Below are positions 8,370 to 52,055 of a stretch of 64,000 nt of DNA, in pieces. This DNA is from Oscillospiraceae bacterium (lineage in GTDB: Bacteria > Bacillota > Clostridia > Oscillospirales > Acutalibacteraceae), in NCBI GenBank assembly GCA_015066015.1, contig SVPE01000005.1, forward strand, positions 68,533-132,532, written 5' to 3'. How positions within the stretch are numbered: position 1 is the first letter of the stretch; each line of letters begins with the position of its first letter. The notes below the pieces were generated by a model. The model was not told where the DNA came from. It worked only from the letters and a program-made list of their open reading frames with translations, and made no database searches. A program made the position numbers and the translations under genes.

Positions 8370-8412
8370 GACTGAAAAGAAAAATGATTACAGAAAACAT
8401 ATAATTTGGTAC

Positions 8413-8574: not shown

Positions 8575-8603
8575 TTGAAAATCTTGAGTTCAAATGATAT
8601 ACT
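8575..8603 (+). promoter_or_regulatory. sigma-A type promoter of the 10,378-aa gene (TTGAAA, 17 nt, TGaTATACT extended -10)
   Basis: -35 TTGAAA at 8575-8580 and -10 TATACT at 8598-8603, with TG at 8595-8596. It sits in a very AT-rich upstream region and leaves a ~135-nt leader. Confidence 0.55.
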
Positions 8604-8737
8604 TACTATAGTTATAGGTGTCTCTATGGGCGAATTGCACCCTTTTTTAGGGAAATTCGCTTTAAAAGCGTTATTTTTGACGCTGAGAAATCCTATTTTA
8701 GATCATATACAATCTTTCATTTAAGGAGGAAAATTTT

Positions 8738-11700
8738 ATGAAAGTTGGTAAAAAAGCGTTAAGTTTGCTGTTGGCCGTGATCATGATCATGTCCACAATG
8801 TCAGTATCTTTCAGCGTATTTGCAGCAACAAATACCACAGCTGACATTTACAGCGCAATCGTAATGCACTATGACAGCCTTATGGATGCCATTGACAAGG
8901 CTACAGTTGCGGATGAGTCCAAGAGGGATACATCCGGCGTTCCTGTCAAGGATGGCTCTGAATGGGTAGTCAAACGTGACACTTTAAACGGAGGTTGGCT
9001 TGCAGTCTCAAGAGCCATTGCGTCTTATGCAAAGGGCACAGTTGCCACTAATAAGACCTATGTAGACCTGGTCGAGAAGATTAAGCTCGATGCAGCAGGT
9101 TATGCAGGCTCAAACGGACATCCCGTTGCTGACTATAATGCTATTCTTGAATACTACAAGTTCGGCTCAACTGCAACAGGCACATTTGCAACTCAGGAAA
9201 CCGTTACTCTCAACATTGGTACCGGTTTTGATTTGCTTGCCTTTAAGGATGTAGCCTCCATTGTAGACAAGACATATTCAAAAGCAACATTAAAGTTCAC
9301 TCCTAAGGGTGAGCTTGCTACAGGTTATACCCTTTCAACTGCTGACGATATCAGCTTCACAACTGAAGATTTTGTTGAAGCAGGTACTGATGTAGCTGTT
9401 ATCAAGGGTGTTCTTGAGCAGTGTGTTGCCGCTGATGCATTTAAGACTTGGTTCAATGCAGGCACGCTTACCACACAGCAGCTTGCTGATATGACAAACC
9501 TTCTCGCTCTCTTTGATACAACAATGGCACTCGCAGGTCTCGGCTATACAGAAGCTGAAATCTGGGATCACTATGTTGCACCCGAAGTTGGTAAAACATA
9601 TACAGAAACAAAGGCCTGGTATGATAATGCCGGTGCACGTGCAGAGGCTGAGCCCAAGGCTGATGCTTATAAGGAACGTATCGATAACCTTATGGCAACA
9701 AGTACAACAGCAATGACAGCTGAACAGCTCCGTGATCATAAGCGAGCAGTTGAAACTGTTATTCAGGAAATGGATAACGACCAGTTCAGCGTTCTCGTTT
9801 ATCAGATCGTAAATGAGAAGGAAGCTGATTACATCGGTGCAGCAGGCCGCAAGGTAGAGACATATCTCAAAGAGCTTGGCGTTAAAGTAGGTCAGGCTTA
9901 TGCTCCGTTGTACGCTGATGAGCTTGTTGCACTTGCTACAAGTGTTGACTCACTCAAGACAAAGAACGATGTTGAACTCGCTGAAGGTCAGGCTTGGGAA
10001 GACACAGAAGAATACCGGGCAAACCTTAACTGGCTTGAAGCTGCATCAGAACTCATCAGCAATATAGACAACTATGTTCTTACAGGTGCTACCTTTGCAG
10101 ATATTGCCGAAAGCAAGACAGCTGCAGATAATGCTATCACAGAAGCTCTTTACAACAAGGTTGCATCAAAGGTTGGTGAACTCTCACTTGAAATCTACGG
10201 TTCAACATACCGTGAGGACAAGGCTGCTATGGACAGCATTATGGCAAATACCATTCTTGTAGGTCGTAGCTACAGTGCTGTTTATGAAATAGCTCAGGAG
10301 TTTATCGGCTATTATAATAAGGCTCTTTCACTTAAGAACACAGCTTCAATGCAGGCTGTGTATGAGTCCATTTATCCTGATGGACTTGATGCGTACGAAG
10401 CATATGTACATACTCTTAAGGCAGCAGCTGCAAAGGCTTACTATGATGCCATTTCAATTGTTGATACGTACATCAGTGAAGCCGGTAAGGTTGCTTACTA
10501 CAATTTTGAAGTAATCATTTCAAAGGCTAATGCTATCAGCTCATCAGACGGCACTTATTCTGTTGTAGGTGCATTCCTTGCTGATGATCCCGCATATGTT
10601 CCCGCAACAGGTGATGTAAAGCCGGAAGATATCTCTGCCCTTTACAACAAGATTTACACCTCAGGAGGCTATCTTGATAAGGCCTACGCATTCAAAACCG
10701 GACTTAATAACCTTCGTAATCTTGCATATACCAATGCAAACGAACAGGTTGTTGACAAGAAGCTCCTTGCTTACATTCTCCGTCAGGAAAACGTAACCGG
10801 TTCAGCATACGCATGGGAAAGCATGCTCGGTAACGTAAGTGTTGACAAGATACGTGAATTTGTTAACGATATCGAGCTTGTTCAGCAGACAGGTATCGAA
10901 ACAAAGAACGGTAAGATTACAGCAGGTGGTATTGAAGATCTTATGAGCCTTGCTGTTGAAGATCTTGATAAGATTCTTATTTCTAATGACCTTGGTACCC
11001 TCCTTAACTCACTTACAGCTAAAGAGAACGAAGAAACCGGTGCAACTGTAGGTTTCCTCGGTGTATGGGGATTTGACTACACATTCAAGAATCCCGAAGG
11101 CGGCACAACAACGGTTAAGGCCGGTGATCCTTGTAAGAACCTTCGCGAATTTCTCATCAACACCATCGTTGGTCTTCTTTGGGGCGGTTCTCTTCAGACA
11201 ACGCTCTTCAAGCTTCTTTCAGAAACTGTTGGTGGTGCAGTTTACAACTTTGGCGGTGCTGCATTCGATGTTGTTGTTGCTACAAAGGACGGATGGCAGT
11301 GGCTTCCTGAAATTCTTCATATGGCTATTCCAGTAATGCCTCATGACTATGTAGAAAACTGGACTAACCCCCTTACAGGTGATACAAATAAAACATATCA
11401 GCAGATAGCACAGGATTATTATGTTGACTGGTACAAATACTTTACCGGTGCGGCTTTTGGTGCAACCGGTCATGCTGAGTATGATTATACAGATATTCTT
11501 TACGTTCTTGATAAGGCTCCTATAGATAAGAAGTGTAATGATGACACTACTGAATGGAGATCTTATTGGAAGGGCTTTACATACGCTGACAACATCTCTA
11601 ATGATAACAGAACTGAATACAGACCCGGTAACGTAATTACCGAAGGCTCATCTGCAGGTCAGGCTCTTGATGCAAGATATTGGGGCGAGGCAAATGGCCA

Positions 11701-14700
11701 AAAGCAGCTCCCATTCTGTAATGACGGTGCAAACTGTACAAATGAAGATCATTACTTCGACAGTAAAAAAGCATGGCATGTTAATGACTGGGACGATTTT
11801 TACAGAACGTTTGCTGTTGCAACCTGCGGTCTTCACGTTCCTCTCGCAGAGCTTGTTACAAAGAAATCTTTGTCCCCTGGTGACAGTGAAGCTTCAAACC
11901 TTTTCGGTGAAGTAGATATTCTTGCTGTTGGTAACGGTAGAGGTCTTGACGCTACACTGCATGCATCTGAACTTGGTGATGCTCTTTACGATCGTCTCTT
12001 TATTCCTCTTTACAGACTTCTTGGTATCGAAGGATTCTACAATGTAAATACTAATCCCGGTGGTTATCACAATAAAGCCGACATCAGATCAGCTTCCGGT
12101 TCCTATGCAAAGGGTAACGGTAGGGTTTCAGTCGGTTCAATAAAAGATTCCGGTGTTACACTTTGGAAGTATGTTCTTGAACCCATTGTTTATTGGTTAG
12201 AAAATACTCTCTTTGTATCTCCCGTTAAGACAATCGCAGAGCTTCTTCCTAACCTTCTTACTATGCTTGAGTATGACCAGCTTATTCCTAAGCTGAAAAA
12301 TATTAATGTTGATATTAATGCAACAATCAAGCCTATGGGAATTACTGTTAATCTTGACGTTACAGAACTGAACCTCTCACAGATCATTATGCCTCTTCTT
12401 GAGGGACTTGGTCTTAATCAGGAGAATCTTTCAAAGGGTATAAACGGTCTTTTGGGTGTTCTTTTAGGTGGTGAGCGAGTAACAAGCAAGCCAAATATGA
12501 ACACTACGACTGATAAGTGGCTGATGCAGGTTACAAAGGTTACCGAAGAAGATGAGTTTGGTAATAAGGTAACAGTTAATAAAACCAGCGATACCGAGCC
12601 TGCTGCATGGAAATCTTCAGCTGATGGTAATACTTATTATCTTAAGAATCCCGGACTTCTGACAGCAACTCTCTATGGCCTTATGGTTCAGGAAAACGAT
12701 CCAACCACAACAGAAAACGAAACACTCAACAATGCTTTCCTTGACTGGATTTTCCTCAATGGTGGAACAAAAGCTGAGATTCCACTTCAGATTCCTGTTA
12801 ACCGCTTTATGGCTACCGGCTCACTTAAGGGCGGTGACCATCCCACAGCAGAATCGATTACAATTCCCGGTGTTTTCAGCTCTGTAACTAACTATCATAT
12901 TTATGCCGAAGCCGGTACATCAATGCTTGTACTTCTTCGTTGGCTTCTTAACGACGGCACACTTGATTCAATTATGCCGCTTCTCAACGGTCTTATTAAG
13001 CCGACTGTTGACCCCGAAACAGGCAAGGAATCAAGCATACTTGATACAATCATTCCTCTTGTTGACGGTCAGGCTGATACCCTTATGGCTATCATTATCT
13101 GTTTGCTCAATGACTATGTAATTGGTTTTGAGTCTTTCCAGGATCCCGCGCAGAATACTAATGATTGGGGTAAATGGAACGCTGAAGGTACAGAATTTAC
13201 ACCATACCTCACTGATGGTGGTGCATCACAGTTTAAGTATGGTACAGTATTCCAGAAGTACCTTTCCGAAGGTAACAAGGATGTAACTGCCAATGAGCTT
13301 GCAGCAGGTTATGGTACAGGCTTCACAGATGCAGACCTTCTTGCAAAGGCAAACCTTGCAGTTGCAAATGTTGACAAGACTATTGCTAAGCTTGTTCCCA
13401 CACTCTTCGTTGCTCTTAAGGATACACTTCTTGGTGTTGATGCTATCCGTGACCTTGGCTTCGAAGCAGTTATTGAAAAGGCAGAAAAGGCTATCGCAGA
13501 AGGTAACCTTGATGCTGTTACACTTGAAACAGTTGTTCTCGATACAGTTATCGGTAATGACCTCGTTGATATGATTATGAACCTTGTCTTCGGTAACGGT
13601 CTTCCCACAAAGGCTAAGGATGCCGCAGGTGCAGCTATTCAGGCTCACACCGACGGTGAGACTATGACCCAGACCTACACCGACGGTAAGGGCAACACAA
13701 CTACTACAACATATTACATTACAGCTGGTAGCGAATCTGCACCTCTTGCTTACGATGCAAACGGCGACGTTGAAATCGTACGCCAGGTTAAGTATGCCCT
13801 TGATGCTGACGGTAACGAAACTGACACAATCGAAGGCTTCGTAGTTAACGAGGGTCTTCTTGGCGGTCTCTTTGCTGATCCTGAAAGCATTCTTAACAAA
13901 GTTCTCGGTGCACTTGGCGACTTCAACCTTGACATTTCTCCCGCAGGCTTCTACGGGCTCTTCTCAGATACCGCTTATGAAGAGAAGACAGGCACAACCG
14001 CTGCCTTCATTAAGACTGCAGGCGCCAATACACATCTTGCTACATGGCTCAAATCACAGGCAGAGAAATTCTCAGGCAAAACTCTCAGCTCACACGCCGC
14101 TACGAAAGCAGAGCTCAAGAATATGACCTGGGGTGATATCCGTGCACCTAAGGGCACAGTATGGTTCGATGAGAACACAACAGACGTTATCGAAAAGTTC
14201 AACCGCTTTGCTGAAATGCTCTGTGACCTTCTCTATCCCCTTAACCCTGTACTTGCATTCCTTCTTTCCGGTCAGGATATTACACTCTTTGACGAACTTA
14301 AGCTCCAGGGTGAAAACGGCTATTCAAAGGGTATTGTTGCAATTCTTGAAGCTCTTATGCTTGATGCAGCTTGCATGAGCCAGAATAGCTTCGATAACTA
14401 TGTTTACACTGCAGCTATAGGCATAAGTCCGATTGGTTATAAAAATGACGCAAACGTAAATGTTGATAACCTTTCAAGCGGTACAATTATTAAGGACGGA
14501 GAAACAATTACAAAGAGATTTGCTGTTACCAAGAACTCACCTCTCAAACCCTTACTTTATGCTATCGGACAGCTTCTCTTCGGTACAAGTGACGGCACTG
14601 TTGATGGTCTTCTTGACGCTCCTCTTACTGTTCTCTTCTCACGTCTTCCCAACATTGCATACAACCTTTATCTCTTCAAGGGTGAAAACGGTAAGAACAC

Positions 14701-35700: not shown

Positions 35701-38700
35701 GGTTCTTGCATTCCTTCTTACAAATGAAGACCTTGTGGTAACCGTTGAAAATAACGGTCAGAAGGCTCAGCTTACACTCAAGGGCGGTAACGCTTATGAG
35801 TCAGCTATCGTTCCCATCCTCTACCAGGGTCTCGGTCTTGAAGAAATCATCACCGGCACTAATAAGGCAAAGGTTGAATCCGCTGTTAAGGTTGATTCTG
35901 CAAATGCAGCAATTGAAGCAGTTGTTGACGCACTTCTTGTTGACCTTGTAGGCGCAATTAAGAAGGCTCCTCTCTCAACAATCCTTACAGTAGTAGGTAA
36001 CCTCGGTTACTTCATTGCAAACGACGACGTTGCAGTTGCAATCCAGAACCTTGTAGCTCCTGTACTCGGTATCGTAGATGCTCTCGGCGGCGTAATCTCC
36101 AGAACACAGCTTGATACTCTTATCGAAGGTCTCGCTAAGATTGAGCTTCCCAACGGTAAGATGCTCAACATCACCAACATTATCAACATTGCCGGCGACA
36201 ATGGTGCAATCCTTGTTGACCTCATCAACGGTCTCCTTCCCGGTATCGAGATTAAGGATGATCAGGGTAATGTTATCCAGGTAATCAATGCACTTCCCGA
36301 CACCTTCTTCCTTGACCTTGCTAAGGCAGCTGTTAAGGTAACAGATCCCGAAACAGGTCTTGTTGAAGGCGAAACAGATGCAAAGACATGGACCACCGAT
36401 AATGGCGGCGCAATCATGTACGTACTTTCAACCGTACTTACAACTGACTTCCTCAACATCCTTTGCGATGTAATCGGTATTGAAGAGAAGACAGAAGACG
36501 GTAAGGACAACATGGTATACGGTATCATTACTTCACTTGCAGGTTCTGCAGATGCAGTAGTTGATCTCCTTCTCAAGCTTCTCAACAGATATCTTGTTGA
36601 ATACAAGGCATATGTACAGCCTGAAATCAATAAGACAAAGATTAACTATGAAGGCGGCGAAGCTGCTCACAGACAGTTCAATCAGGTTATTTCAAACCTT
36701 GACGGACTTATCCCCGTAATCTTCGAACTTCTTGTTAAGCAGGAAGGTGTAAACAACCTTGCAGATCTCGTATATCCGTTATTTGTTAAGGATGACATCG
36801 CTAACCTCCTTGTAAGTGCTATTGCTAAGCTTCTTGCAGGTCTTCCCGCAGAGACAATTACAATGATTGAAGATCTTGTAACTGATCTTGCAAACGTCAA
36901 GAATGCTACAGTTAAGGATGCAGACGGCAACGAAGTTGAAGTATTCAGCATCGCACCTACAGCATTCAAGGCTGACAACTTCAAGTCTAAGCTTGACGAA
37001 TACATCGGCGATGCAAAGACTTGGGCAGAAGTATGGGCAGCACACAGTGAAGACAAGAAGGATGAAAACGGTAATATCGTTTATGCTAAGGATGCAGACG
37101 GCAAGACAGTTGTTGATGCTGAAGGCAATCCTGTAGCAGAAAAGGTAGCATCCGCATATGCTTGGAACATCAAGACTGTAGATGACTTCATCAATCTCAT
37201 CTGTGACTTCCTTGCACCTCTTGACTGCGTACTTAACCTCCTTCTTTCAGGCGGTATGGTAAGAGCAGACTTTGACACAAATCGTCCTAACGAGACATTC
37301 ATGGGCAAGAGACTCGCTGTATTCGATGATATCGCAATCAGCGGCGGTAGCGGTTACAACTACGCAATCATTCCTCTCCTTGAGCTCTTCGGTGTTGATG
37401 CTGATACTCAGGAAGAGTACATGATCGCAGTTGAAACCAATTACAACAGCGCACTCTACCCCGTACTCACAGCACTCTTCGACAGAGTTGATGAAATCCT
37501 TACAGCTCCTGTTGAAAGTCTCCTCGATATTCTTGCAAACCTCTGCTATGCCCTTGGCACAGGCAGCGTTGCAACAATCGTTGAAAATCTCATTGCTCCT
37601 GTAAACAATGTAATTGCAGCAGTTGATGAAATCTTCCCGATCGCAATTCCCATCGACGTAGGCGCTCTCATCAATGGTCAGGCACTTAAGGTTTACCTTG
37701 GTGAAGCACATCCCGGTATCGATTCAGGTATCACCTTCAAGCTCGAAGGCAATGATGTAGCAGCACTTCTTGAAGATGTAATTGCCGGTATCAACATCGG
37801 CGGTGCATCACTCGAAGTTGACCTCGATTGGATGGCACTTGCAGCTGCAGCCGCAGCAGACGTAAACGGTGATGGTAAGGGAGACTTTGACGGTTCAAAG
37901 ATGAGCACCAAGTGGGATATCTACAACGGTGGCGCATACAAGAACCTCAAGGGTGATGCAGGCGACACATTCGTAACACTTATTAAGACAGTTCTCACAG
38001 AAAAGAACTGGAATGCTCTTAAGGAAGCTCTTGGCCTTGATCTCGGTGACTTCAACACAGTTGTTGACGGCATCATCAAGGATCCCACAAAGCTTATCGA
38101 CCTTATCGGCAGTATCTTCAGTATCGAAGGCGTTCACTACATTCCTGTACAGAACAGAAAGGTAGAAGCTAAGCCTTACGACTACACAACATACCTCTAC
38201 ATGACAGAGCAGAATGCTGACATTATTGCTCAGAACATCGACAAGCTTGTAAATGACATCCTTCAGGCAGCCGGCTTCGGTTCACTCAAGGGTCTTATCG
38301 GTACACTTCTCACTAACAAGCTTGCAGGTGACCTCATCGGTAAGATTACAGGTCTCCTCGGTGGCGATACAGTTGGTCCTATCCTCGGAACAATTGCAGG
38401 TCTTACCGGCGGCGAAGATCCGATCCTCGTTGTATACGATGCAGCAGGTAATGTTACAAAGCTTAACCTTGACCTCACAGTTAAGGGTTATGCAGATGCA
38501 TACGACAATTACGCTAACCATAACAGAGCCTTTGCTCAGGAACTCCACAGAGTTGCTAATGCAAACGGCACATGGGCAGATGTAAATGTTGCTAACATCG
38601 ATTGGGGTGTAAACGGCACAGTTACAAGCTTCGCAAATGCATTCGCATCAATCCTCAATCCTCTCAACAGTGTTCTCGAACTTCTCCTTGTTGGTGAAGG

Positions 38701-39874
38701 CAAGTCCCTTGGCTTACTTCCCGCTAAGGACGAAAACGGCGAATACAAGAAGGATGCAAACGGAATGCCTGAATGTGTTGTAAGCATCAAGGGCGGCAAC
38801 GGTTACGATTACGCAATCATTCCTCTCCTTGAAGCATTCGGTCTCAAGTCAGGCGAAGTTATGAACGTAACAGCTTATAACAACGCTTATAAGGCAGATA
38901 ACTCCAAGCTTATGGGTTACATCCTTGAGAGAGTTGGCTTCTTTGCTGACAGACTTCTCAACAAGCCCATCGACGGTCTTCTTACAATCCTTCCCAACCT
39001 TGCATACTTCATTGCAAACGAGGGTGTCGGACTTGTAGTCAGAAACCTTGTAGCTCCTGTTTACTCAATTCTTGGTCTCCTCGGTCTTGACCTTATGGAA
39101 ATGCTTAACCTCGGCAATCTCCTTGGCAGCATCGAAATTCCCATCGACATCCTCGGCGAGAAGCTTGGTCTCCACCTTCCCGATATCGATTGGATGAAGC
39201 TTGCACAGGAAGGCGCAAGTGAAGTAGTAGAAGTTACAACTTCACGTTCACAGGCTGCTAACTCCTTCGTCAATGCACAGAGACTTACAAACCAGGCAGA
39301 CGTTGATAATTACATTAAGAATTATCCCGTAGGCTATGAAGGCAGATCCAACAAGCTCACTCAGACCTTCATCGTAGCAGATAAGGGCGACGTTCTTACA
39401 CTTGTCTTCACATGGCTCTTCGAGCTCTTCGAGGATCCTGACAACCAGAACGCTCTTGTTGAGTGGATTGCAGCAACCTTCAACCTTCAGTCCGGCGCTA
39501 AGGAAACTGTAAGATATGCTATCAACCAGCTCTTCCTTAAGGCTAAGATTTATAACGCACCTGATATCATCGTAGGTGGTCTCTTCTCAGCTCTCGGTGT
39601 AGTACTTGTATTCAACGAAGCTCTCAAGGGAAATATTACTGAAGTTGTTAACATCTTCAAGGAACTCTTCGGTGCAGCAGGTAGCGGCGGATGCGCATAC
39701 TCAAGCATTGCTAAGATCATGGAAGATCTTACCGGTGTATGGGATGACACAATCGGTTCCGATCAGGATCATGAGGACGCAGTTGAAGACGCTGAAGAAA
39801 GCCTTAACTGGTTCCAGAGACTTATCAAGAAGATTAAGGAATTCTTCCAGAAGATTTTCAGTATCTTTAAGTAA
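8738..39874 (+). CDS. giant secreted modular protein, 10,378 aa, unknown family
   Basis: The 31,137-nt frame has no stop. SD AAGGAGG lies upstream of the ATG and the signal peptide is MKVGKKALSLLLAVIMIMSTMSVSFSVFA/ATN. Codon usage is consistent throughout and 15 internally homologous modules are present. A possible C-terminal TM segment (IIVGGLFSALGVVLVF) is followed by the amphipathic tail LNWFQRLIKKIKEFFQKIFSIFK. A terminator lies 39 nt downstream. Confidence 0.93.
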   Translation: MKVGKKALSLLLAVIMIMSTMSVSFSVFAATNTTADIYSAIVMHYDSLMDAIDKATVADESKRDTSGVPVKDGSEWVVKRDTLNGGWLAVSRAIASYAKGTVATNKTYVDLVEKIKLDAAGYAGSNGHPVADYNAILEYYKFGSTATGTFATQETVTLNIGTGFDLLAFKDVASIVDKTYSKATLKFTPKGELATGYTLSTADDISFTTEDFVEAGTDVAVIKGVLEQCVAADAFKTWFNAGTLTTQQLADMTNLLALFDTTMALAGLGYTEAEIWDHYVAPEVGKTYTETKAWYDNAGARAEAEPKADAYKERIDNLMATSTTAMTAEQLRDHKRAVETVIQEMDNDQFSVLVYQIVNEKEADYIGAAGRKVETYLKELGVKVGQAYAPLYADELVALATSVDSLKTKNDVELAEGQAWEDTEEYRANLNWLEAASELISNIDNYVLTGATFADIAESKTAADNAITEALYNKVASKVGELSLEIYGSTYREDKAAMDSIMANTILVGRSYSAVYEIAQEFIGYYNKALSLKNTASMQAVYESIYPDGLDAYEAYVHTLKAAAAKAYYDAISIVDTYISEAGKVAYYNFEVIISKANAISSSDGTYSVVGAFLADDPAYVPATGDVKPEDISALYNKIYTSGGYLDKAYAFKTGLNNLRNLAYTNANEQVVDKKLLAYILRQENVTGSAYAWESMLGNVSVDKIREFVNDIELVQQTGIETKNGKITAGGIEDLMSLAVEDLDKILISNDLGTLLNSLTAKENEETGATVGFLGVWGFDYTFKNPEGGTTTVKAGDPCKNLREFLINTIVGLLWGGSLQTTLFKLLSETVGGAVYNFGGAAFDVVVATKDGWQWLPEILHMAIPVMPHDYVENWTNPLTGDTNKTYQQIAQDYYVDWYKYFTGAAFGATGHAEYDYTDILYVLDKAPIDKKCNDDTTEWRSYWKGFTYADNISNDNRTEYRPGNVITEGSSAGQALDARYWGEANGQKQLPFCNDGANCTNEDHYFDSKKAWHVNDWDDFYRTFAVATCGLHVPLAELVTKKSLSPGDSEASNLFGEVDILAVGNGRGLDATLHASELGDALYDRLFIPLYRLLGIEGFYNVNTNPGGYHNKADIRSASGSYAKGNGRVSVGSIKDSGVTLWKYVLEPIVYWLENTLFVSPVKTIAELLPNLLTMLEYDQLIPKLKNINVDINATIKPMGITVNLDVTELNLSQIIMPLLEGLGLNQENLSKGINGLLGVLLGGERVTSKPNMNTTTDKWLMQVTKVTEEDEFGNKVTVNKTSDTEPAAWKSSADGNTYYLKNPGLLTATLYGLMVQENDPTTTENETLNNAFLDWIFLNGGTKAEIPLQIPVNRFMATGSLKGGDHPTAESITIPGVFSSVTNYHIYAEAGTSMLVLLRWLLNDGTLDSIMPLLNGLIKPTVDPETGKESSILDTIIPLVDGQADTLMAIIICLLNDYVIGFESFQDPAQNTNDWGKWNAEGTEFTPYLTDGGASQFKYGTVFQKYLSEGNKDVTANELAAGYGTGFTDADLLAKANLAVANVDKTIAKLVPTLFVALKDTLLGVDAIRDLGFEAVIEKAEKAIAEGNLDAVTLETVVLDTVIGNDLVDMIMNLVFGNGLPTKAKDAAGAAIQAHTDGETMTQTYTDGKGNTTTTTYYITAGSESAPLAYDANGDVEIVRQVKYALDADGNETDTIEGFVVNEGLLGGLFADPESILNKVLGALGDFNLDISPAGFYGLFSDTAYEEKTGTTAAFIKTAGANTHLATWLKSQAEKFSGKTLSSHAATKAELKNMTWGDIRAPKGTVWFDENTTDVIEKFNRFAEMLCDLLYPLNPVLAFLLSGQDITLFDELKLQGENGYSKGIVAILEALMLDAACMSQNSFDNYVYTAAIGISPIGYKNDANVNVDNLSSGTIIKDGETITKRFAVTKNSPLKPLLYAIGQLLFGTSDGTVDGLLDAPLTVLFSRLPNIAYNLYLFKGENGKNTCNFSIAVKNLIAPVTKVLEIVDPVLARLVNLDINELLDSFLDIESLINNLINGLAGLDEGTGSSVAIFEFGKLAADSATVDLNATTYRHGASKFTRFYGAPGKFFITLVRTLLTKDVVGAIGGLVEGIFNKEGENKTPEELEADQRVRDIITMIENNLCKPDTENKLAGGAYIDYLTSIIIDIFTDYLPEEGAFYFYEIINRVDEELIKLEDQIDAMSLDKYGIKHDGYDWATKPVDENGNVLFTEADVNETIENLDYVIRKAVPDVLSTLQSNGVIGGDLVASLQGDDGLWGLLKGLALDYALKDDGLTWLANAIIGLFGEGGSTSTTKIIQQALKAAGFDMTFDAFMYKKGADGKIDKSQPTAIYDYFTYGFYKKDGKLQSETGKMDWYYLDADHNNKADDINGDGNIDKNDEVELTFVQIYKNHSYELYETDDDGNLVIVDGQPKKKAVQIQITEEREEKNAEGVIEKVTYYKYIVLDDNGEETAEVIWLNESGKTEVVDGTVTKKLVADTKDKKVLDEDGNETNVTVYETALLSTAYPQVKTAEGYKYTYTNADGEVKEYYGAYQQMTVLDSGEDNDKGENIYYTLSPVYSEDIGEREWSWDIDDIIAGESESRDVFTLRKVKFINTLWDVLEPFAVVFSTLFAGDALRLFDTLNIEGGFGYDDYLLPLMRAFGLDSIIEMLGAEKLSQLQTKDAGGNPIEHLMTRDEYMAKVYNADGSINPEGVGYTVKNVVNYIFYFVEILCNYPVETLANALPTLAYFLYADGLTSILNGVLVPVTTLTNRLNEIIDLDVNAIGAGLIDYLATGDWANFQESLGGFMYIDPDTGNLVTNVDANLNLTYSILSLITNLEFDLSGIVGEDDPYEGKYGLVLFLNKENEHMAKQLLKDAAELEKNGGATAEQIKQMRQQARDCRAGTLKGFLKSIAALGDPVSEKQGLANEYIYKNYADYVYISSTGSVHVSKAEVLMFLLDFIFENNTLKEVIGSLLGYDLTDENTSDAELLDEIITNVFNNPNALVNLIVSLLTDYDVKQIVGVELKEIEAENHFEFYEDAGFDTHEEVLEHNKNLAAGEEKVTEISRVKTSATIDNLDALVGKILNLSILKDMLAKEDDPATAEDESGAFNKLFGITTDDTITLQGIVDAVFETYLYDDKGLNSIMDMLIGLLGGEGASQIVNIVLDILAGSGYDLTPEAFKTNVPQLAATIDKAEDLNEDGKISWDEVVKANSKYQYVVKNADGEVTATYFADEKGLTKLDHDGDAATEEIDVIADMVQKQTERKVDKQVTDETTGETSTVKVTEYKYTYSVKNAAGELEDKEVWLEEAGKTEWIETPDDPETDENEEVKHLVEAEMYDTDKQKTAVKISATWGLQTRDDFVDVLWNCIKPLAPIFAALFCEGELTLFDKISIKGAAGYDGFVLPLIKALGIPALRANKNADGTWSDDLTTANENEGEYFLKADKLVDYATYKATVYGSDGILGTGDDNGKIMLTTITDALFALVDSLCARPVNTLLTIIPYLAHFIESDGVDAILDNLLVPVTTITEMVKDIYKIDLLGMVKDLLRGLIKDMNDKAGETSDSTKPEDQATTGGAAAAYVLNVIEESEADAGQSAGEAIISELTDPAPALDLSGGDGSNYKFKDIIVELLEGVSINGTALNTIIDPEFIFLNLASIAWLPGVMKADNSGWDRYPSQKITVTINADRRGGSHSLSDAAVYTVDRESVLIKVLNDIVFTDGIRDLIGDLIKFDFGKDAMTTLTEEDSNYLLTVLLYGVFEDPEALERLLIDLLSWYEIEYEDARVKKTDVENAYDLGTTEPIDYEAAGLDKAQMEKLPEDFDSLIGKIVPAVIGMLPADALGDIKLQGANLEEMVHNLLADLMMDKEVTNDEGVKEMKYGFATQLVELLVNLLGGNATVSMIVGLLPTIIEGMDVELKDFKKVNTAFNTYFADYDTWAEAYEGLKTIKKYVAPDEPAADYVAPAYEEGTLNLYAVDENGKPVPEYAVDENGANIPVYANGTKVTDAWDNVWYTAAGTPANDEETALENTYVVKTVDGKIVYKYQYELKLTNTNSFGIATYQDVLDLVSQILAPFAPVLRFLLTEADLVALDGVHLTGGDGYDRFIIPLFEMLGVDKYIGAQKFLNKTDFAALDNAAFTAKVVEYIDGLISMVVNTPIQTIVDLVPELVFFVYSDGLAQAVEQLVAPLLTLVDMVNDITAKEVVIEGRDDALVALDIVALITDLINDNLMKPNNIAEIDGFYGDNGLITRLLTAEGLEALLQGLLDNANAWIYAYEYTIPKDMVEGATEDEVVTVYFNSADLDGATHIPTNGNGKDMTFTLTAVPDKNKTPIDLGLDKDGDGTADAAPIKGIFRWILEKTCKIEKVDTIRTYGAVNGKVWGVKANRADTLVQIISETLLGGGMLTSLLNSFGVEIKEGDILDTILKALTGENKYQLFVVLLTYFNEYDVETMLMDYLSFEKVEYAYETYVEGTRLTQRKLRRAIKKLDGSILTVVPELIQMLEEVEFIKMLLDKIGGYHGQSLKDLVHELLMAYAFNDQTMNQLMGLLIGLLGGEDLAGTLNTVLPLVNDIVGIDITPYGFYEATTSDAIKAYMEAAFAAFPAGPVLDDKGEPVLNDDGTPKMTTVKDDFTWADLAKYYTVYVYSYNDVTKTTKYEYTYEKDGKTEYYYVDEAVAADENGKYILKDGDNVYELTATQEVTKDFYSYETNYMYSKNADLHGTPVEGVDGKTWFGYEQATDTEGNLSWADEAKGIPEIKTVTKTVNKVDAEGNNIVVDGVIQTEEISEQVRATRVNALEGDAAFAWGIDAKTSYEDKADKFIDILAGIVVPLEGVLNFLLRGDSLYILPDEKTENSGVLEFYGNNGYENVIMPLFQALGVDQVGGTIVSAADYEAGRGTALTLTAITDGIFSIVEALTDGPLEYIFTLLPSLSYFISCNGPEIVLNNLLSPVLALLNLADPIVGDLLDDLLGATLSGVFADYMPEDIDFTETTNYKAPIYVEVDGTGEFEGQMVKVPARTDSTTVTFRDETYYIDAGTDEGEIIEGKYVVTTETVDGELVPDFEEYNAYALTDLLKICGENGDNLIKILNKLVGPLLLAEDATEEDKAAFQLLPETFFEDYAKHAITINKQTANADFYYYYEDAEGNRIKIKDDLYSSDMGEIKEARYVVDWFKVDIADSAVYLLDNVLSESLLNEIARIAKIDINKEGDILGGILKNLIEGNFNGLVVADIITALFENYTIKYNELYGEYITPDHSHLNTLETQDDKDKAARVPGQLDTIIENALPAIAPILSDLLAPKEGAEPTILNDIFDNYDTIANDAAVADLYEVVEYLLDDLVFSDELVNTLAALIINLIGTTDIVGTIIEYFGLTGIKLDPQSYLATVKKAYENKTEMADAVAALAGIIGEAKTWADVVKNDTTPLYAYEYVDGVNEDGTAKKFTVYLADENATTYELTKTEGEGEEAKEVKYEFALTQVLDADKNRVVKAEYNKEENGENVADVTWGVNAASDKKTAFIKALAVIVEPLFPVLQLVLQGKTLTLIGHDKAAYEPVNMVEYNADGVATTIIDDSRTGEEIGNGYVELMGVNGYEELLVPILDAIGGLEAFGAYSADNTDGIMTVAEFCAINNAYDMLSYIVNVVFGFVNNLVEAPVTYLATYLPSLLYFIGSDGVYNAVHSVLQLVNALIAVAEPLIGANGIKLSDTIGLPLDLLMLKLDDSTVPGKVQKTVDGKFVYIAKGDENKEEIYLDKAGLTKNGETEIEAVMVDGMVTVEGLCSLINGLIKKDNLINKDIILKLAGYLGDYAVINTVKRNATSALYDTKLDAYVNMNGDIVAKKDGDIWVDAYGNATTKPATGSQMITIVGDTKYTLTGLLQFALADGLVGGLVDTSEMEGILKTIIDNVMGPDATKNVTEILIKLLNKYVITYKAIEEPAEALVPAATDYAKYGVEKTEVQLALGNIQKLLPEVLDLLGVGSLDKLVADNLYTDKVVNGIIAMLVGLLGGLDEKTWGTITDILGYVKDIVGLNIDITPAAYAAEGNKLAPFINAVDVKRDVVDEDGNVTGEERIPVADLTWADVAEFYTKYEYRYMVEAAKPAEGVEGEEGYKAPVEAKYVTVWFADADLNGKDHTPTTGDYAGKTFKLEKVETVYYGYEYTIPAVGEEGAEDYVAAKTETLKSTDSELTEYKVGEVTYALTAKGEVERVHNTKVESDFVWGVAEGATLNEKADKLVAVVIDLLKPLDGVLELLLAGGVYEFDGTTYGDSLGAFEEINIMGGSGYNYAIIPLLEALSVPADKILTQADYEATIATKGTLGYILETVLHTVNDNLDKPLDFVLGLFANLAYTISKNGATTFVSNLIAPLSEVIEAIEGVLPVAIKVNLMALMDGGSVAEILLGSDVALKGAEVGLTLDLDCDTLEALLAKVLAKFVAGFDITISFKDIAAKSAKLDEMGDIEYFNSKVDPKWDICLGIPGKNIQGDTAATIITLLAMVITTDNIDALLQMLNLDINTLDKPIADLINKAIESPDVLIGAVIKLLANNYDVVGVIEAMVFYFLGEAEYDYSNIKGGLLNGGHSAVNSAISKFDKMVNNLIPKLLKLLGNDLDKPVEIIADIYNGLGEDAADADIKAVVDYLLNDLVFNDKMMNQLLGLIVGLLGGIDEKTFKTIVDIVKEVLGIDLSPAGVAAISEANGGKVAAFINAHEASDKDAGLTWADIANAHAWYEYKYCVVEAKEAVGTEGEEGYVPAVEAKYVTTHFADADLDGEDHTPTTGDYAGKTFKLEKVTKDDKHVTKVILEETWNISDKDDFLGILYEVTAVVEPLLAFLFKGENINILIDDFGLKGSDGYTHALIPLAKALHIEIEEDVTKFDDANEMLKEVVNGIFGLVEDIEKAPISTILEVLGSASYFIANDGVALVINNLIAPVTGLISIFEKKTTVEVNGEIVEKSEGITMADINALLKSLIKMDLNDITGIAGADGSKLVSMINGLLPKVYLVDEATGEKTRLAEPLPAKFFEIMSTYAINYDSMTNAQKKDAANIRTLEVTEWSVDKADVLMYLLSTVCSDDFLAFIGNLAKAEEGTVLGDVIYGLAGDEDLVINIISMLLNEYKLVYNKYAQVDITKINVDPKDPLTDTNLAQAIQAIDGLVPAIIGLLVKDADSLKGLVENLVAGADLGNLLMNLLVPLLAGLDIDEILGYVKEFSNLNVKLDPSAWTADADSEIAKFILAADEDKDGKVTWADVEAFYTQYEFTYTIPAVGAEGEEGYVAAKTETVFKPAGTTKITIGEGKDAKTYDLTKVNEYEYTYTVTTGEGEEAKTEEKTIILDKDDYTTYDVDGNEETADVEVTLSKPVQKSKMVSEYDWNIDNFDGLKNFAVDLLKPLDVVFELLLAGANIIVAPDTKTDVEPYPAEITVRGGDGYNFAIIPLLEALGATGLKTQAEYEAQAATDGSHLKYVLDVLFAEVEEILATPVSQLMSRLANLFYFLGNNSANDLVDNLLAPVNTLIAEVDPIFPLAINIDVSKIGTDDIIGLYLGKAHDGVEAGIHVNVESTAIATLLNDLLAGIEINGTKLGLSLDLNWLEIAAKMAKTEDATKQSTTGAKIATVASKMDYKSYENVVGNTEYADGKYYNIQGDVVDTFITLLQVLLTDNNTEALKNLIEGLLKDAPQEVKDILDDILSDPDAIEKLVGVVVLLLTGRGEMEDYPLAFAYKFLGELNFNYKNDEINAAISKFDKMVVREAVGILKMFGTPAADKKEEDYNFLEKMVVGVSDKENATLADIVDWLLGEFAFTSENFTGLMEILNNVLADAITAELADILATILPIRLMPYEFAEATGNAKLQAYVGKAVTKAVDALVFADDATDEDKAKAIDEAKKAVTWADVRAAYATSAEKDGKTVWTYNYGEGDNAFTWGVEDKDTFVGAILDLLKPLNPILDFLFAGKELAFEIEGVKLWGADGYANAIVPLLNALGLKQLGVEMPATAADSTTALGYIVDALLGTTEAKGAVDAICEAPITSILKIVGNLSYFIANGNLDELIQNLLAPVFGLLDLAESLVSREDLDTIIEGLAKITLPGGKALNITNIINIAGAEGEGLVALINELIGGIRVYEKEIVVEDGKNVSKIVVYDKAYVEDHPEFDWWAVDKTDADGNVVYETDEEGNEVLDKDGKPVAEQVYYKVLQMINLLPDDFFKQFAKYVVEESELNGVAVTTVGADVDSWTINVGDALMYVLSTVLDYDFFETILKKVGLDLSQGIGATVLTMADKENELIDVLVMLLNDYKVVYSKVEQATLPADVTTPYTNFGQDKDGNDLLDNENTTNAVAALDPIINTVVAMLADGKTLSDLVNGLIADADLANIIMNALVPVLAGLDKNENLDLDAILSYVYELTNIKLETLAPTLWDDDFGSALVTFIDGSETWAEVEAKYTQYEYSYTADGAEEATVVYKPEAGRHDYTVTVGEGENAKTYDLRPVLDGTTQKSKMLSEFNWGIEDLNDLVPLVCDLLAPLDIVFQILLSAKPIIALEDDVTSDRNDIRIMGGYGYNYAIIPLLEAFGADGLLTQEEYEEKAAADGSHLKYILETLIGEVEEILETPLNELLSRLANLFYFIGSDGINAIADNLLAPLNTLIEEVDDLFPLAIRIDVAADEILGLYLGKEHEGIPAGITVNVSGADLAALINDLIGDLTIGEIHLNLHLDLDWTEIAAKMAKKDTDGKILTTGTKQVYNLGTVKNPAVADLVNLTGDAANAIVTLLDTVLTEENCKNIYTLVTGLLGDMDPTLKSVIEELIGSPDSIKGIVAAVVLILTGEYEVAELDYIFKYLGVLTFAKSADAKTAVESLDRVLIKAVPVIIELLAKDVTDTENFLYKLYHGTNKNATLDNIVNYLLNDFLFTDSMMNTITGALLGILKNLGTDITDILKDFLGIDLAPVAFAAASGNAQLIAYVGNAATWADVVAAHTDADGNLAAVFTDVAGKEAWVGAILDMLKPLEKVLAFLLTNEDLVVTVENNGQKAQLTLKGGNAYESAIVPILYQGLGLEEIITGTNKAKVESAVKVDSANAAIEAVVDALLVDLVGAIKKAPLSTILTVVGNLGYFIANDDVAVAIQNLVAPVLGIVDALGGVISRTQLDTLIEGLAKIELPNGKMLNITNIINIAGDNGAILVDLINGLLPGIEIKDDQGNVIQVINALPDTFFLDLAKAAVKVTDPETGLVEGETDAKTWTTDNGGAIMYVLSTVLTTDFLNILCDVIGIEEKTEDGKDNMVYGIITSLAGSADAVVDLLLKLLNRYLVEYKAYVQPEINKTKINYEGGEAAHRQFNQVISNLDGLIPVIFELLVKQEGVNNLADLVYPLFVKDDIANLLVSAIAKLLAGLPAETITMIEDLVTDLANVKNATVKDADGNEVEVFSIAPTAFKADNFKSKLDEYIGDAKTWAEVWAAHSEDKKDENGNIVYAKDADGKTVVDAEGNPVAEKVASAYAWNIKTVDDFINLICDFLAPLDCVLNLLLSGGMVRADFDTNRPNETFMGKRLAVFDDIAISGGSGYNYAIIPLLELFGVDADTQEEYMIAVETNYNSALYPVLTALFDRVDEILTAPVESLLDILANLCYALGTGSVATIVENLIAPVNNVIAAVDEIFPIAIPIDVGALINGQALKVYLGEAHPGIDSGITFKLEGNDVAALLEDVIAGINIGGASLEVDLDWMALAAAAAADVNGDGKGDFDGSKMSTKWDIYNGGAYKNLKGDAGDTFVTLIKTVLTEKNWNALKEALGLDLGDFNTVVDGIIKDPTKLIDLIGSIFSIEGVHYIPVQNRKVEAKPYDYTTYLYMTEQNADIIAQNIDKLVNDILQAAGFGSLKGLIGTLLTNKLAGDLIGKITGLLGGDTVGPILGTIAGLTGGEDPILVVYDAAGNVTKLNLDLTVKGYADAYDNYANHNRAFAQELHRVANANGTWADVNVANIDWGVNGTVTSFANAFASILNPLNSVLELLLVGEGKSLGLLPAKDENGEYKKDANGMPECVVSIKGGNGYDYAIIPLLEAFGLKSGEVMNVTAYNNAYKADNSKLMGYILERVGFFADRLLNKPIDGLLTILPNLAYFIANEGVGLVVRNLVAPVYSILGLLGLDLMEMLNLGNLLGSIEIPIDILGEKLGLHLPDIDWMKLAQEGASEVVEVTTSRSQAANSFVNAQRLTNQADVDNYIKNYPVGYEGRSNKLTQTFIVADKGDVLTLVFTWLFELFEDPDNQNALVEWIAATFNLQSGAKETVRYAINQLFLKAKIYNAPDIIVGGLFSALGVVLVFNEALKGNITEVVNIFKELFGAAGSGGCAYSSIAKIMEDLTGVWDDTIGSDQDHEDAVEDAEESLNWFQRLIKKIKEFFQKIFSIFK
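11950..12295 (+). repeat. module core 0 (degenerate first copy)
   Basis: ..LYDRLFIPLYRLLGIEG .. VSPVKTIAELLPNLLTMLEYDQLIPKL; matches the IPL..LG and LP.L...L halves of the later cores. Confidence 0.5.
14198..14775 (+). repeat. module core 1
   Basis: FNRFAEMLCDLLYPLNPVLAFLLSG..LQGENGYSKGIVAILEALMLD..LPNIAYNLY..KNLIAPVTKV. Confidence 0.75.
15908..15943 (+). other. EF-hand / dockerin-like 12-residue Ca-binding loop inside the giant ORF
   Basis: DINGDGNIDKND fits D1-x-N3-x-D5-G6-x-I8-x-x-x-D12. Confidence 0.5.
16583..17078 (+). repeat. module core 2
   Basis: WDVLEPFAVVFSTLFAG..IEGGFGYDDYLLPLMRAFGLD..LPTLAYFLYADG..GVLVPVTTL. Confidence 0.8.
18341..18376 (+). other. EF-hand-like 12-residue loop inside the giant ORF
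   Basis: DLNEDGKISWDE fits D1-x-N3-x-D5-G6-x-I8-x-x-x-E12 and runs into the recurrent (T/S)W(A/D)(D/E)V motif. Confidence 0.5.
18830..19354 (+). repeat. module core 3
   Basis: WNCIKPLAPIFAALFCEG..IKGAAGYDGFVLPLIKALGIP..IPYLAHFIESDG..NLLVPVTTI. Confidence 0.8.
20927..21340 (+). repeat. module core 4
   Basis: VSQILAPFAPVLRFLL..LTGGDGYDRFIIPLFEMLGVD..VPELVFFVYSDG..QLVAPLLTL. Confidence 0.8.
23188..23626 (+). repeat. module core 5
   Basis: LAGIVVPLEGVLNFLLRG..FYGNNGYENVIMPLFQALGVD..LPSLSYFISCNG..NLLSPVLAL. Confidence 0.8.
25274..25819 (+). repeat. module core 6
   Basis: LAVIVEPLFPVLQLVLQG..LMGVNGYEELLVPILDAIGG..LPSLLYFIGSDG..SVLQLVNAL. Confidence 0.8.
27415..27856 (+). repeat. module core 7 (A subtype)
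   Basis: VIDLLKPLDGVLELLLAG..IMGGSGYNYAIIPLLEALSVP..FANLAYTISKNG..NLIAPLSEV. Confidence 0.8.
29153..29542 (+). repeat. module core 8 (B subtype)
   Basis: VTAVVEPLLAFLFKG..LKGSDGYTHALIPLAKALHIE..LGSASYFIANDG..NLIAPVTGL. Confidence 0.8.
30422..30457 (+). other. EF-hand-like 12-residue loop inside the giant ORF
   Basis: DEDKDGKVTWAD fits D1-x-D3-x-D5-G6-x-V8-x-x-x-D12 and is fused to the TWADVEAF module-boundary motif. Confidence 0.5.
30841..31270 (+). repeat. module core 9 (A subtype)
   Basis: AVDLLKPLDVVFELLLAG..VRGGDGYNFAIIPLLEALGAT..LANLFYFLGNN..NLLAPVNTL. Confidence 0.8.
32485..32899 (+). repeat. module core 10 (B subtype)
   Basis: ILDLLKPLNPILDFLFAG..LWGADGYANAIVPLLNALGLK..VGNLSYFIANG..NLLAPVFGL. 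Confidence 0.8.
34211..34636 (+). repeat. module core 11 (A subtype)
   Basis: VCDLLAPLDIVFQILLS..IMGGYGYNYAIIPLLEAFGAD..LANLFYFIGSDG..NLLAPLNTL. Confidence 0.8.
35651..36094 (+). repeat. module core 12 (B subtype)
   Basis: ILDMLKPLEKVLAFLL..LKGGNAYESAIVPILYQGLGLE..VGNLGYFIANDD..NLVAPVLGI. Confidence 0.8.
37181..37633 (+). repeat. module core 13 (A subtype)
   Basis: ICDFLAPLDCVLNLLLSG..ISGGSGYNYAIIPLLELFGVD..LANLCYALGTG..NLIAPVNNV. Confidence 0.8.
38621..39091 (+). repeat. module core 14 (A-like, last copy)
   Basis: FASILNPLNSVLELLLVG..IKGGNGYDYAIIPLLEAFGLK..LPNLAYFIANEG..NLVAPVYSI. Confidence 0.8.
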
Positions 39875-39912
39875 GTTTCACGGTTAACAAATAACCGATT
39901 AAACAAAAATTA

Positions 39913-39944
39913 CTCCCTGCCTCAATCGAGGCGGGGAGTTTTTC
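39913..39944 (+). terminator. Rho-independent terminator of the 10,378-aa gene
   Basis: CTCCCTGCCTC-aatc-GAGGCGGGGAG (one G-U pair) followed by TTTTTC. Confidence 0.8.
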
Positions 39945-39962
39945 TGTGTAGCTGTCGGTGAC

Positions 39963-40005
39963 AAAAAAAGAAGCTCAGCAATGATTTTCGCTGAGCTTCT
40001 TTTTT
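39963..40005. terminator. bidirectional terminator shared by the giant gene (+) and the GH3 gene (-)
   Basis: GAAGCTCAGC-(10 nt)-GCTGAGCTTC, flanked by AAAAAAA upstream and TTTTTT downstream. Confidence 0.75.
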
Positions 40006-40015
40006 ATAGTTCTGA

Positions 40016-43647: not shown

Positions 43648-43808
43648 AATATATTCTTCCTTTCGGTGAAAGCATTATTTGAATATGTTCTTTAATAGAT
43701 TACCACATTTTTATAAAATGTTCAAGTATTATATGAAAAAAATAGGGCAGTATAGAGAGTTTTATTTTTTGTTTACAATATTTACCACAAAGAAAAAACT
43801 CGGACTTG

Positions 43809-43817
43809 TGTTATAAT
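43809..43817 (+). promoter_or_regulatory. extended -10 element TGTTATAAT upstream of the SH3b-peptidase gene
   Basis: Exact TGnTATAAT 49 nt upstream of the RBS-supported ATG. No clear -35. Confidence 0.4.
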
Positions 43818-43865
43818 TTGCAAGGACGTCTCATGGCAAATACAACGGCGTCCTCAGGAGGTAAA

Positions 43866-51969: not shown

Positions 51970-52055
51970 TATAAAAATATGAAATTTATGAGTATCTGAG
52001 ACAAGGGAAAACTCATATGTTTCAAAACAAAATTTATCAAACGGAGGAAAATCAC

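Follow-up and report, generated by a model that had tools for sequence, protein, structure and literature searches.

A 10,378-residue predicted secreted protein of an uncultured gut Oscillospirales bacterium belongs to an unannotated family with putatively helical modules and a C-terminal amphipathic helix

The locus and its giant open reading frame

The DNA analysed here is a stretch of 64,000 nucleotides from contig SVPE01000005.1 of an Oscillospiraceae bacterium (GenBank assembly GCA_015066015.1), which is referred to as the window. It contains a giant open reading frame (ORF) that is preceded by the gene for a 2,374-aa secreted protein, hereafter the partner, and followed by a convergent GH3 gene (Table 1). 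A preliminary description of this DNA, prepared from the letters alone, had reported a single frame of 31,137 nt encoding 10,378 aa, and this was confirmed; the window does not contain any N and the translation of the giant ORF has one stop only, at its end. In DNA of 42–47% GC, an open frame of 10,378 codons is beyond chance. The giant product has a computed mass of 1.13 MDa and a pI of 4.27. As described earlier it is rich in Leu (11.3%), Ala (9.9%), Asp (8.6%) and Glu (7.2%), together with Gly (7.9%), Val (7.9%) and Thr (7.4%), and Cys and Arg are scarce. The strong Shine-Dalgarno sequence and the clean terminator, with its GC-rich stem, were both found at the ends of the gene. The promoter-like element was found to be present as hexamer pairs, among them TTGAAA-17-TATACT with a TG at 8575–8603 (10 of 12 promoter matches) and TTGACG-18-GATCAT at 8677–8706 (9 of 12). 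Their number (5) was not significantly above that expected from shuffled sequences (2.4 ± 1.5), and thus this element is weak evidence for a promoter.

Table 1. Features of the giant gene and its surroundings in the window
Feature	Residues	Position	Strand	Remark
Upstream partner gene	2,374 aa	1185..8309	+	Secreted beta-rich protein; Flg_new; CarboxypepD_reg/Ig-like C-terminal domain
Promoter-like hexamer pairs		8575..8706	+	Upstream of giant gene
Shine-Dalgarno AAGGAGG		8723..8729	+	8 nt 5' of giant ATG
Giant ORF	10,378 codons + stop	8738..39874	+	ATG start; ORF listing
Sec-type signal peptide (predicted)	1–29	8738..8824	+	Predicted cleavage after VFA
N-terminal head	30–1008	8825..11761	+	Small alpha/beta region, then long-helix bundles (modelled)
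Array of 15 divergent tandem modules	1009–10272	11762..39553	+	Self-BLAST, iterative self-HMM, alignment
Moderately hydrophobic segment NAPDIIVGGLFSALGVVLVFNEAL	10273–10296	39554..39625	+	Kyte-Doolittle 2.07
Acidic linker	10297–10356	39626..39805	+	Ends ...DAVEDAEESL; from sequence
Basic/aromatic amphipathic helix NWFQRLIKKIKEFFQKIFSIFK	10357–10378	39806..39871	+	Stop codon directly after
Intrinsic terminator		39912..39939	+	12-bp stem, 8 GC pairs, then T-run
Convergent GH3 gene		40016..42457	-	Downstream of giant

The giant gene is genuine and conserved

Four independent metagenome assemblies were found to be 100% identical across both ends of the giant gene. A 225-kb JGI contig (3300031555) matched positions 1–18309 of the window with 100% identity, and the gene called on it encodes exactly 10,378 aa. 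Positions 110–14643 were matched by a second sample from JGI, 30016–52457 by an ENA assembly and 39614–43452 by a further JGI contig. The identical partner protein was present on 10 contigs. The longest direct DNA repeat within the giant ORF was 300 nt with 74% identity, and thus the collapse or expansion of repeats is of no concern. Species-representative genomes of five other species (L001–L004 and L006) were collinear with the last 10 kb of the giant gene at 72–89% nucleotide identity, and the collinearity extended to the downstream GH3, SH3-peptidase, GDPD and MFS genes. The frame was open over all 10 kb upstream of the stop in 24 of the 25 species genomes with a full tail match, and the ratio of nonsynonymous to synonymous substitution rates (dN/dS) against five orthologues was 0.21–0.24, even along ~3,350 codons. 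Because ~31 kb of coding DNA has been kept in one frame under purifying selection across species, the giant gene must matter to the cell.

The possibility that the giant is an assembly artefact, a pseudogene or a run of non-functional degenerate repeats staying open by chance was weighed against these data. Its starting points are that the source is a metagenome, that the middle 11.7 kb lies outside the independently re-assembled parts (1–18309 and 30016–52457), and that the gene of one relative is split into two ORFs of 474 and 585 aa on a contig of 4.7x coverage. For the stretch 18310–30015, the independent match is the 10,378-aa JGI gene call. An artefact would, however, have to explain the agreement of that gene call and of both gene ends, the lack of long near-identical DNA repeats, the frame that is open in nearly all species with a dN/dS of ~0.21 along the gene, and the hundreds of full-length relatives, some of which recur at equal length, like the 62 members of ~6,550 aa in cluster 6, several of them on multiple contigs. 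We therefore regard it as largely refuted already and extremely improbable. These results together indicated that the giant ORF is a genuine, conserved chromosomal gene, and its source is an uncultured Oscillospirales bacterium of the animal gut with closest relatives labelled Acutalibacteraceae.

Two relatives deviate from the intact frame. Only 1,293 open codons were found upstream of the tail in L017 (6515–10394), where the gene either encodes a shorter family member or has been disrupted, and the split gene mentioned above lies in L048 (2802–6089), where a sequencing frameshift is the probable cause.

Head, tandem modules and structure models

Self-comparison and an iterative self-hidden Markov model (HMM) resolved the giant protein into a head, 15 tandem modules and a 106-aa tail. 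The first seven modules are ~700–810 aa long, the next seven ~485–585 aa (the extremes being 809 and 484 aa), and the last one is a half-module of 321 aa; the modules are 18–46% identical to the reference module. All the 15 copies open with a conserved N-subdomain of ~170 aa with the motif W(G/N)..D.F...L.PL..VL..LL.G...GG.GY..AIIPLL.ALG...LPNL.YFI..DG...NL.APV. A TWADV-type motif lies near the end of 11 modules (3 and 5–14), after which several modules carry variable inserts rich in T, E, K and Y. When 1,103 module instances from 151 proteins were aligned, the best-conserved columns were Gly, Pro, Tyr, Phe and Leu, and no conserved His, Cys, Ser or Lys signature was found among them. The absence of a catalytic-type signature from the conserved columns suggested a structural and not an enzymatic role for this repeat.

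Loops of the canonical EF-hand type (for example DLNEDGKISWDE) were noticed at three places in the giant protein, aa 2391, 3202 and 7229 (window ~15908, 18341 and 30422), as compared with 0.12 expected by shuffling, and two of these occupy an equivalent position directly before the TWADV motif. A Ca2+ site may thus be retained in a few modules.

The AlphaFold2 (AF2) model of a 554-aa module, built from a 15-sequence alignment, had a mean predicted local distance difference test (pLDDT) score of 64 and a predicted template-modelling (pTM) score of 0.50; its first ~230 residues reached pLDDT 75–87, and the model was mostly helical with few short strands. The head model (1,008 aa, 12-sequence alignment) had a pLDDT of 64 and a pTM of 0.38. 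Within it, aa 220–580 were modelled at pLDDT 80–95 as long helices of 20–35 residues, preceded by a small alpha/beta region, and aa 684–1008 were poorly predicted. Both models thus agree with the earlier suggestion that the protein is largely helical, to the extent that models of moderate confidence can support it, and neither had a fold match in the PDB.

The giant protein belongs to a large family of gut Clostridia

The word-indexed homology searches were insensitive and returned 6, 7 and 12 matches, and the family was revealed by an exhaustive profile search, in which a profile of the 15 modules was scored against 1.84 billion representative proteins. At E ≤ 1e-3 this gave 656 protein clusters, and 384 reached E ≤ 1e-30. 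The family proteins are mostly 2,000–7,700 aa long with 5–18 matched stretches each; among the best 150 of the 656 clusters, the median length was 3,082 aa and the maximum 7,691 aa, and protein length followed module copy number with r = 0.91. The 15 modules of the window giant exceed the maximum of 13 copies seen in these best 150 relatives. Because its two closest matches are N-terminally truncated fragments, other members of similar size may exist.

All the named members of the family are "hypothetical proteins" of Clostridia or Ruminococcus metagenome-assembled genomes (MAGs). As to the phylogenetic spread, which the preliminary description had left to be checked, nearly all the family proteins come from MAGs of gut Clostridia. 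The closest subfamily among GTDB species representatives was found in Acutalibacteraceae, Oscillospiraceae and unclassified Clostridia MAGs, the hosts being roe deer, sheep, goat, cattle and rabbit, with some human samples. The window giant has 15 copies of the tandem ~500-aa module with the family signature (GG.GY..AIIPLL.ALG / LPNL.YFI..DG / NL.APV), and the arrangement of a Sec signal, a head of ~700–1100 aa and an amphipathic helix at the extreme C-terminus, or a transmembrane (TM) anchor instead, is also found. The first ~700 aa of its head are distantly conserved in many subfamilies. By these profile matches, the giant protein is not an orphan and is a member of a large unannotated family of predicted helical modules in gut Clostridia.

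No curated family covers the giant protein, and searches with its models gave no fold match

The preliminary description had found no recognisable domain family. This holds for the curated libraries and the solved structures, and it does not hold in the sense of an orphan protein, given the family of 656 clusters. Searches of the whole giant protein in three pieces against Pfam and NCBIfam returned sub-threshold noise only, and the matches to DotY (E 0.005, 17 bits against a cut-off of 27) and to an NaPRTase fragment were dismissed as such. When each module and the head were searched separately at E ≤ 1, no recurrent Pfam family was found except EF-hand_7 in 2 of the 15 modules, and Pfam did not find any domain in the heads of eight distant relatives. 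The sequence (phmmer) and profile (hmmsearch) searches of PDB gave nothing below E 0.027. Foldseek returned best E values of 0.5 and 0.8 for the module model against PDB and BFVD and 0.08 for the head model against PDB, with TM-scores ≤ 0.15, and the top matches were generic helical solenoids or rods at chance level. Together these searches gave no confident match to a characterised adhesin, toxin or enzyme family, and the evidence that no curated family covers the giant protein is solid.

The motifs that had not been found by eye were not found by motif, Pfam and NCBIfam searches either. The 10,378 aa do not contain any LP.TG, a lone NP.TG lies at aa 877, and Gram_pos_anchor did not match. 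Likewise, SLH, cohesin and dockerin, the cadherin/Big repeats, the condensation, adenylation, KS, AT and PCP domains of nonribosomal peptide and polyketide synthases, HemolysinCabind, and toxin, Rhs/YD, RTX or enzymatic domains had no Pfam or NCBIfam matches in the giant protein. A megasynthase was rejected, as core domains did not match and the signal peptide indicates export. An RTX adhesin or toxin was rejected as well, since the three isolated GGxGxD occurrences are the module's own GGxGY(D/N) motif without tandem nonapeptides and a Sec signal is present. A multi-pass membrane protein was also set aside, because the hydrophobic 19-mers inside the protein have averages of ≤ 2.0 and include D, E, K or P.

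Export signal

The N-terminus MKVGKKALSLLLAVIMIMSTMSVSFSVFA, followed by A at the predicted cleavage point, reads as a basic n-region, a hydrophobic core and a c-region with a V-F-A cleavage-type site, in agreement with the classical Sec signal peptide described earlier, and it is predicted to be a Sec/signal peptidase I-type signal. The motif KKxLSxLLAxxMI was found to be kept across the giant family, with K6, L8, S9, L12, M16, S22, V23 and F25 as invariant columns of the head alignment, and a crude test detected an N-terminal signal in 110 of 150 relatives.

The same pattern is common to the signals of the giant, of the partner (1185–1280) and of other adhesins that bear the tail described below (L028–L039), and its invariant columns persist even between heads of only 16% identity. 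It is absent from two other signal-like N-termini in the window, those of the SH3-peptidase (43806..44822) and of an NMT1-type binding protein (52017..53063). The KKxLSxLLAxxMI signal may be a specialised export signal.

The C-terminal tail

The tail consists of a moderately hydrophobic segment, an acidic linker and a terminal helix (Table 1). The hydrophobic moment of the helix (0.80) is the maximum of all 18-mers in the giant protein, whose 99th percentile is 0.54. Nearly all the complete relatives end at the stop codon in such a Phe/Trp/Lys-rich amphipathic helix, which reads NWFQRLIKKIKEFFQKIFSIFK in the window giant and ...NGFIKFFQKIIxFFKNLF in others. The helix can be written as the pattern ...EESLNWFQ[KR][IL]IKxIKxFFxK[IL]F. 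By a test of hydrophobic moment and composition, the helix was present in 106 of 150 representatives. By a pattern count made separately, 10 of the 150 end in a TM segment with basic residues (KKKK) behind it, and the rest include visibly truncated fragments. Pfam did not match the tail alone, and neither the tail by itself nor the final 3,378 aa had a match to DUF5776 or SH3.

When the species-representative genomes were searched with the tail alignment (130-aa query), 16 further loci matched the last 30–40 residues only, often in giant-bearing genomes. The giant-type module was found in none of these 16 loci. A signal peptide was present in all the nine complete tail-only proteins, which are 1,100–2,100 aa long, and the four that were scanned have Flg_new, MucBP, Big_2, fn3, SHIRT and DUF285 domains. 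Builds of the Flg_new/MucBP/Big_2 type are typical Gram-positive adhesin architectures, which elsewhere end in LPXTG. Because the same EESLNWFQKIIKAIKDFF tail ends secreted Flg_new/MucBP/Big_2/fn3/SHIRT proteins that are unrelated to the giant and lack its module, the helix is a portable element, shared at the C-terminus by secreted surface-type proteins of this lineage, and in some relatives its position is taken by a membrane anchor. We propose, by analogy, that it is a membrane or cell-surface retention element.

On which side of the membrane this helix would lie depends on the hydrophobic segment before it. In a type-I membrane protein, aa 10273–10296 would span the membrane and the acidic linker and helix would be cytoplasmic, on the inner leaflet, as in MinD and FtsA, whose membrane-targeting amphipathic helices lie there. 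The Kyte-Doolittle value of 2.07, a comparable hydrophobic stretch before the tail in other subfamilies and the well-known existence of cytoplasmic C-terminal amphipathic targeting helices are compatible with this topology. The hydrophobic core is, however, only ~16 residues long with a polar position that is conserved in relatives, and other tail-bearing adhesins have the helix without any such segment. Furthermore, the next 60 residues contain 14 D/E against 3 K/R, which by the positive-inside rule argues against a stop-transfer segment with a cytoplasmic tail, whereas the true TM variants of the family precede KKKK. We consider the type-I topology quite unlikely, and the segment is probably a buried helix rather than a TM span; as the linker before the helix is acidic, the tail would not be cytoplasmic.

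Two observations concern the spread and the variants of the tail. Two tail peptide patterns gave at least 600 stretches in the species-representative genomes, of which 41 were confirmed against the 130-aa query, and the short helix motif may thus be much more widespread than the loci examined. The giants P0049, P0085 and P0094 have a Cys-flanked tail, CDCDCHS..FFFKIANFFRRLFGM..CECGDAHW, similar to that of the partner, and in this variant the anchor may be stabilised by metal or by disulfide bonds.

A proposed head-stalk-anchor protein of the cell surface

The signal peptide, a family-wide helix that appears interchangeable with a TM anchor and the adhesin-type proteins with the same helix support the earlier suggestion of a cell-surface fibre or scaffold, which they do not prove. 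We consider it fairly probable that the giant is a helical stalk, exported by Sec and tethered at its C-terminus, whose head-stalk-anchor design is like that of Ebh and Embp, without homology to them. The Sec signal, as read from the N-terminus and its conservation in relatives, would drive export and be cleaved after VFA29. The 15 mostly helical modules of 320–810 aa, a structural and non-enzymatic repeat, would form an elongated stalk, and across the family the number of modules would determine its length. The tandem array and the relation of length to copy number were observed directly, the helicity comes from the moderate-confidence models and the elongated shape is inferred. The last 22 residues, a Phe/Trp/Lys-rich helix, would keep the C-terminal end on the outer side of the cytoplasmic membrane, in the manner of PBP5. 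Here, the helix and its portability were observed and the anchoring is putative; the interchangeability with a TM segment is read from the count of 10 in 150 and from the representatives listed as having neither ending, in which the helix is absent. Such a stalk would present the head of ~1000 aa at a distance from the cell, where it could attach to a substrate, a host surface or other cells, probably together with the beta-rich partner, which carries a tail variant.

Several points weigh against this proposal. An adhesin-type domain was not found in the giant itself. The hydrophobic segment could be a real TM span, with the helix then on the cytoplasmic face, and the helix, being heptad-like, could instead serve oligomerisation, cell-wall polymer binding or recognition by a sorting enzyme. 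Both the AF2 models are of moderate confidence only, so that the terms "helical rod" and "no known fold" are no firmer than the models themselves, and for the same reason the Foldseek negatives are weak evidence for a new fold.

A released exoprotein was considered as well, which could be a scaffold of a matrix or biofilm, a toxin or an effector, and its helix would be a signal for secretion, sorting or oligomerisation. In favour of this explanation, the heptad-like pattern of the tail is compatible with a coiled coil, an ABC-2 transporter pair adjoins the 5' side of the two-gene cassette of partner and giant, and the Apilactobacillus kunkeei giants occur both on cells and in the supernatant (PMC12863079). 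However, a Sec signal at the N-terminus makes a C-terminal secretion signal needless, the ABC genes are not conserved beside the cassette (an Rce1-like gene is found there in L047), and relatives without the helix have in its position a TM anchor of the classical stop-transfer type, which points to retention. Neither toxin, Rhs/YD, RTX or enzymatic domains nor catalytic-type conserved residues were found. A released protein is thus unlikely.

Comparison with known giant proteins and C-terminal anchors

The earlier comparison with Ebh was found to hold for size and design and not for homology. Ebh of Staphylococcus aureus and Embp of S. epidermidis are giant surface proteins with FIVAR-GA helical bundles. 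Ebh is described as a 1.1-MDa protein of 52 repeats with a predicted length of 320 nm (PMC9302970). The giant resembles Ebh and Embp in its ~1.1 MDa and ~10,000 aa and in the order of its parts: a signal peptide and a unique region at the N-terminus are followed by many helical repeats, in the giant a proposed extended stalk, and by a putatively cell-associated C-terminus. It differs in having no sequence or profile similarity to them, FIVAR, GA and DUF1542 having no Pfam match on the whole protein or on each module at E ≤ 1. Its modules are 320–810 aa long as against ~125–170 aa in Ebh and Embp, its signal MKVGKKALSLLLAVIMIM... lacks the YSIRK motif, and it ends in an amphipathic helix after an acidic linker, whereas Ebh and Embp end in a TM segment with a basic tail.

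Giant1–3 of A. kunkeei, proteins of 3,000–8,000 aa found on cells and in the supernatant, are likewise extracellular proteins of Firmicutes with a Sec signal, a putative binding region at the N-terminus, a long array of parallel alpha-helical repeats that are highly imperfect and a conserved C-terminal attachment region, and their genes adjoin those of other giant surface proteins (PMC12863079). They have a beta-solenoid head and DUF5776/SH3b-like C-terminal domains, neither of which was detected in the window giant; in its AF2 head model, aa 220–580 form long helices without any beta-solenoid, and aa 684–1008 are poorly modelled. Their repeats are 62–366 aa long, and no homology to the window giant was found.

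For the tail, the nearest analogy is that of PBP5 and PBP6 (DacA and DacC), which are exported proteins with an amphipathic helix at the extreme C-terminus. The moment of the PBP5 helix was 0.50 as against 0.80 for NWFQRLIKKIKEFFQKIFSIFK, and the two helices are similar in sequence character. PBP5 is Sec-exported, and through this helix it stays attached to the outer side of the inner membrane in E. coli (PMC2909392). Its cargo is an unrelated 40-kDa carboxypeptidase in a Gram-negative host, so that the likeness is an analogy only and the membrane binding of the giant tail is putative.

Bacterial proteins above 10,000 aa, described earlier as very rare, are indeed rare, and proteins of 10–30 kaa have already been reported from gut Clostridia by West-Roberts et al. 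(bioRxiv 10.1101/2023.11.21.568195). These share with the window giant the bacterial class, the habitat (mammalian gut metagenomes), the size range and a presumed role at the surface or in adhesion; they are made of beta repeats of recognised types (RCC1, Listeria-Bacteroides repeat, YG repeat, dockerin, LRR), whereas the window giant is predicted to be helical and lacks these. Size alone thus has precedent, and what appears new here is the Pfam-dark family of predicted helical modules, its head and the portable C-terminal helix, for none of which a limited literature search found a describing paper.

Giant surface proteins set the attachment of gut bacteria to particles, mucus and each other, and Oscillospirales dominate ruminant and human hindguts while being almost entirely uncultured. 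The Pfam-dark module recurs in hundreds of multi-thousand-residue proteins, the head domain is without recognisable relatives, and the portable helix appears to occupy the place of the LPXTG, SLH or TM anchors of other Firmicutes. Tentatively, and with some doubt on our side, the tail helix and the KKxLSxLLAxxMI signal might mark an undescribed retention or sorting system of Acutalibacteraceae and related Oscillospirales that functionally replaces LPXTG and sortase in an entire group of adhesins, with the giants as its largest cargo, a new fold, and stalks of hundreds of nm that are tuned in length by their number of modules, from 5 to 15 or more. The module, the head and the helix could each be curated as a new family or sorting signal, which would improve the annotation of thousands of "hypothetical" giant ORFs of the gut, and the 22-residue tail offers a tractable experimental handle on surface display in this lineage.

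The partner gene and the genomic neighbourhood

The partner has a signal peptide and a beta-rich composition, and no homology to the giant was found. Its earlier designation as a repeat protein is only loosely right; a BLASTP self-comparison at E < 1e-5 did not show internal repeats. At its C-terminus lies a variant of the tail helix with Cys residues on its flanks (CTCACHRDNVWGAIFRFFHKIIKLFTGEFKCC..., aa 2345–2359, nt 8217–8261). Homologues with the same tail were found directly 5' of the giant head in L042 (70% identity), L047 (56%) and L048 (~33%), and therefore the pairing suggested earlier stands, partner and giant forming a conserved two-gene cassette. The tail motif C.CACHRDN.WG.IFRFFH.IIK..TGEFKCC of the partner is conserved in the same three relatives.

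In L043 (1–9589), which corresponds to the region upstream of the window start, mnmG, rsmG, noc/parB, parA, parB and serS adjoin the cassette, which places the giant locus in the origin-proximal region of the chromosome. Around the giant gene, signals of tRNAs, phages or mobile elements were not found, the neighbours being housekeeping or sugar-use genes. At the place of the ABC-2 transporter pair of the window, L047 has an Rce1-like/CPBP intramembrane protease (1–657), which is a putative candidate for a tail-processing enzyme. Type I secretion through the upstream ABC genes was rejected, as the giant has a Sec signal and L047 does not conserve these genes.

A second hairpin, flanked by A/T runs (AAAAAAAGAAGCTCAGC...GCTGAGCTTCTTTTTT), was read by eye at 39958–40015, between the giant terminator and the convergent GH3 gene, where the terminator scan did not list it; it probably serves as the terminator of GH3. 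The GC content steps up inside the giant gene from 0.42–0.43 up to ~18 kb to 0.445–0.47 over 18–40 kb. The GC skew is mostly slightly negative in the giant gene (window 8000–40000) and positive in most of the flanking windows.

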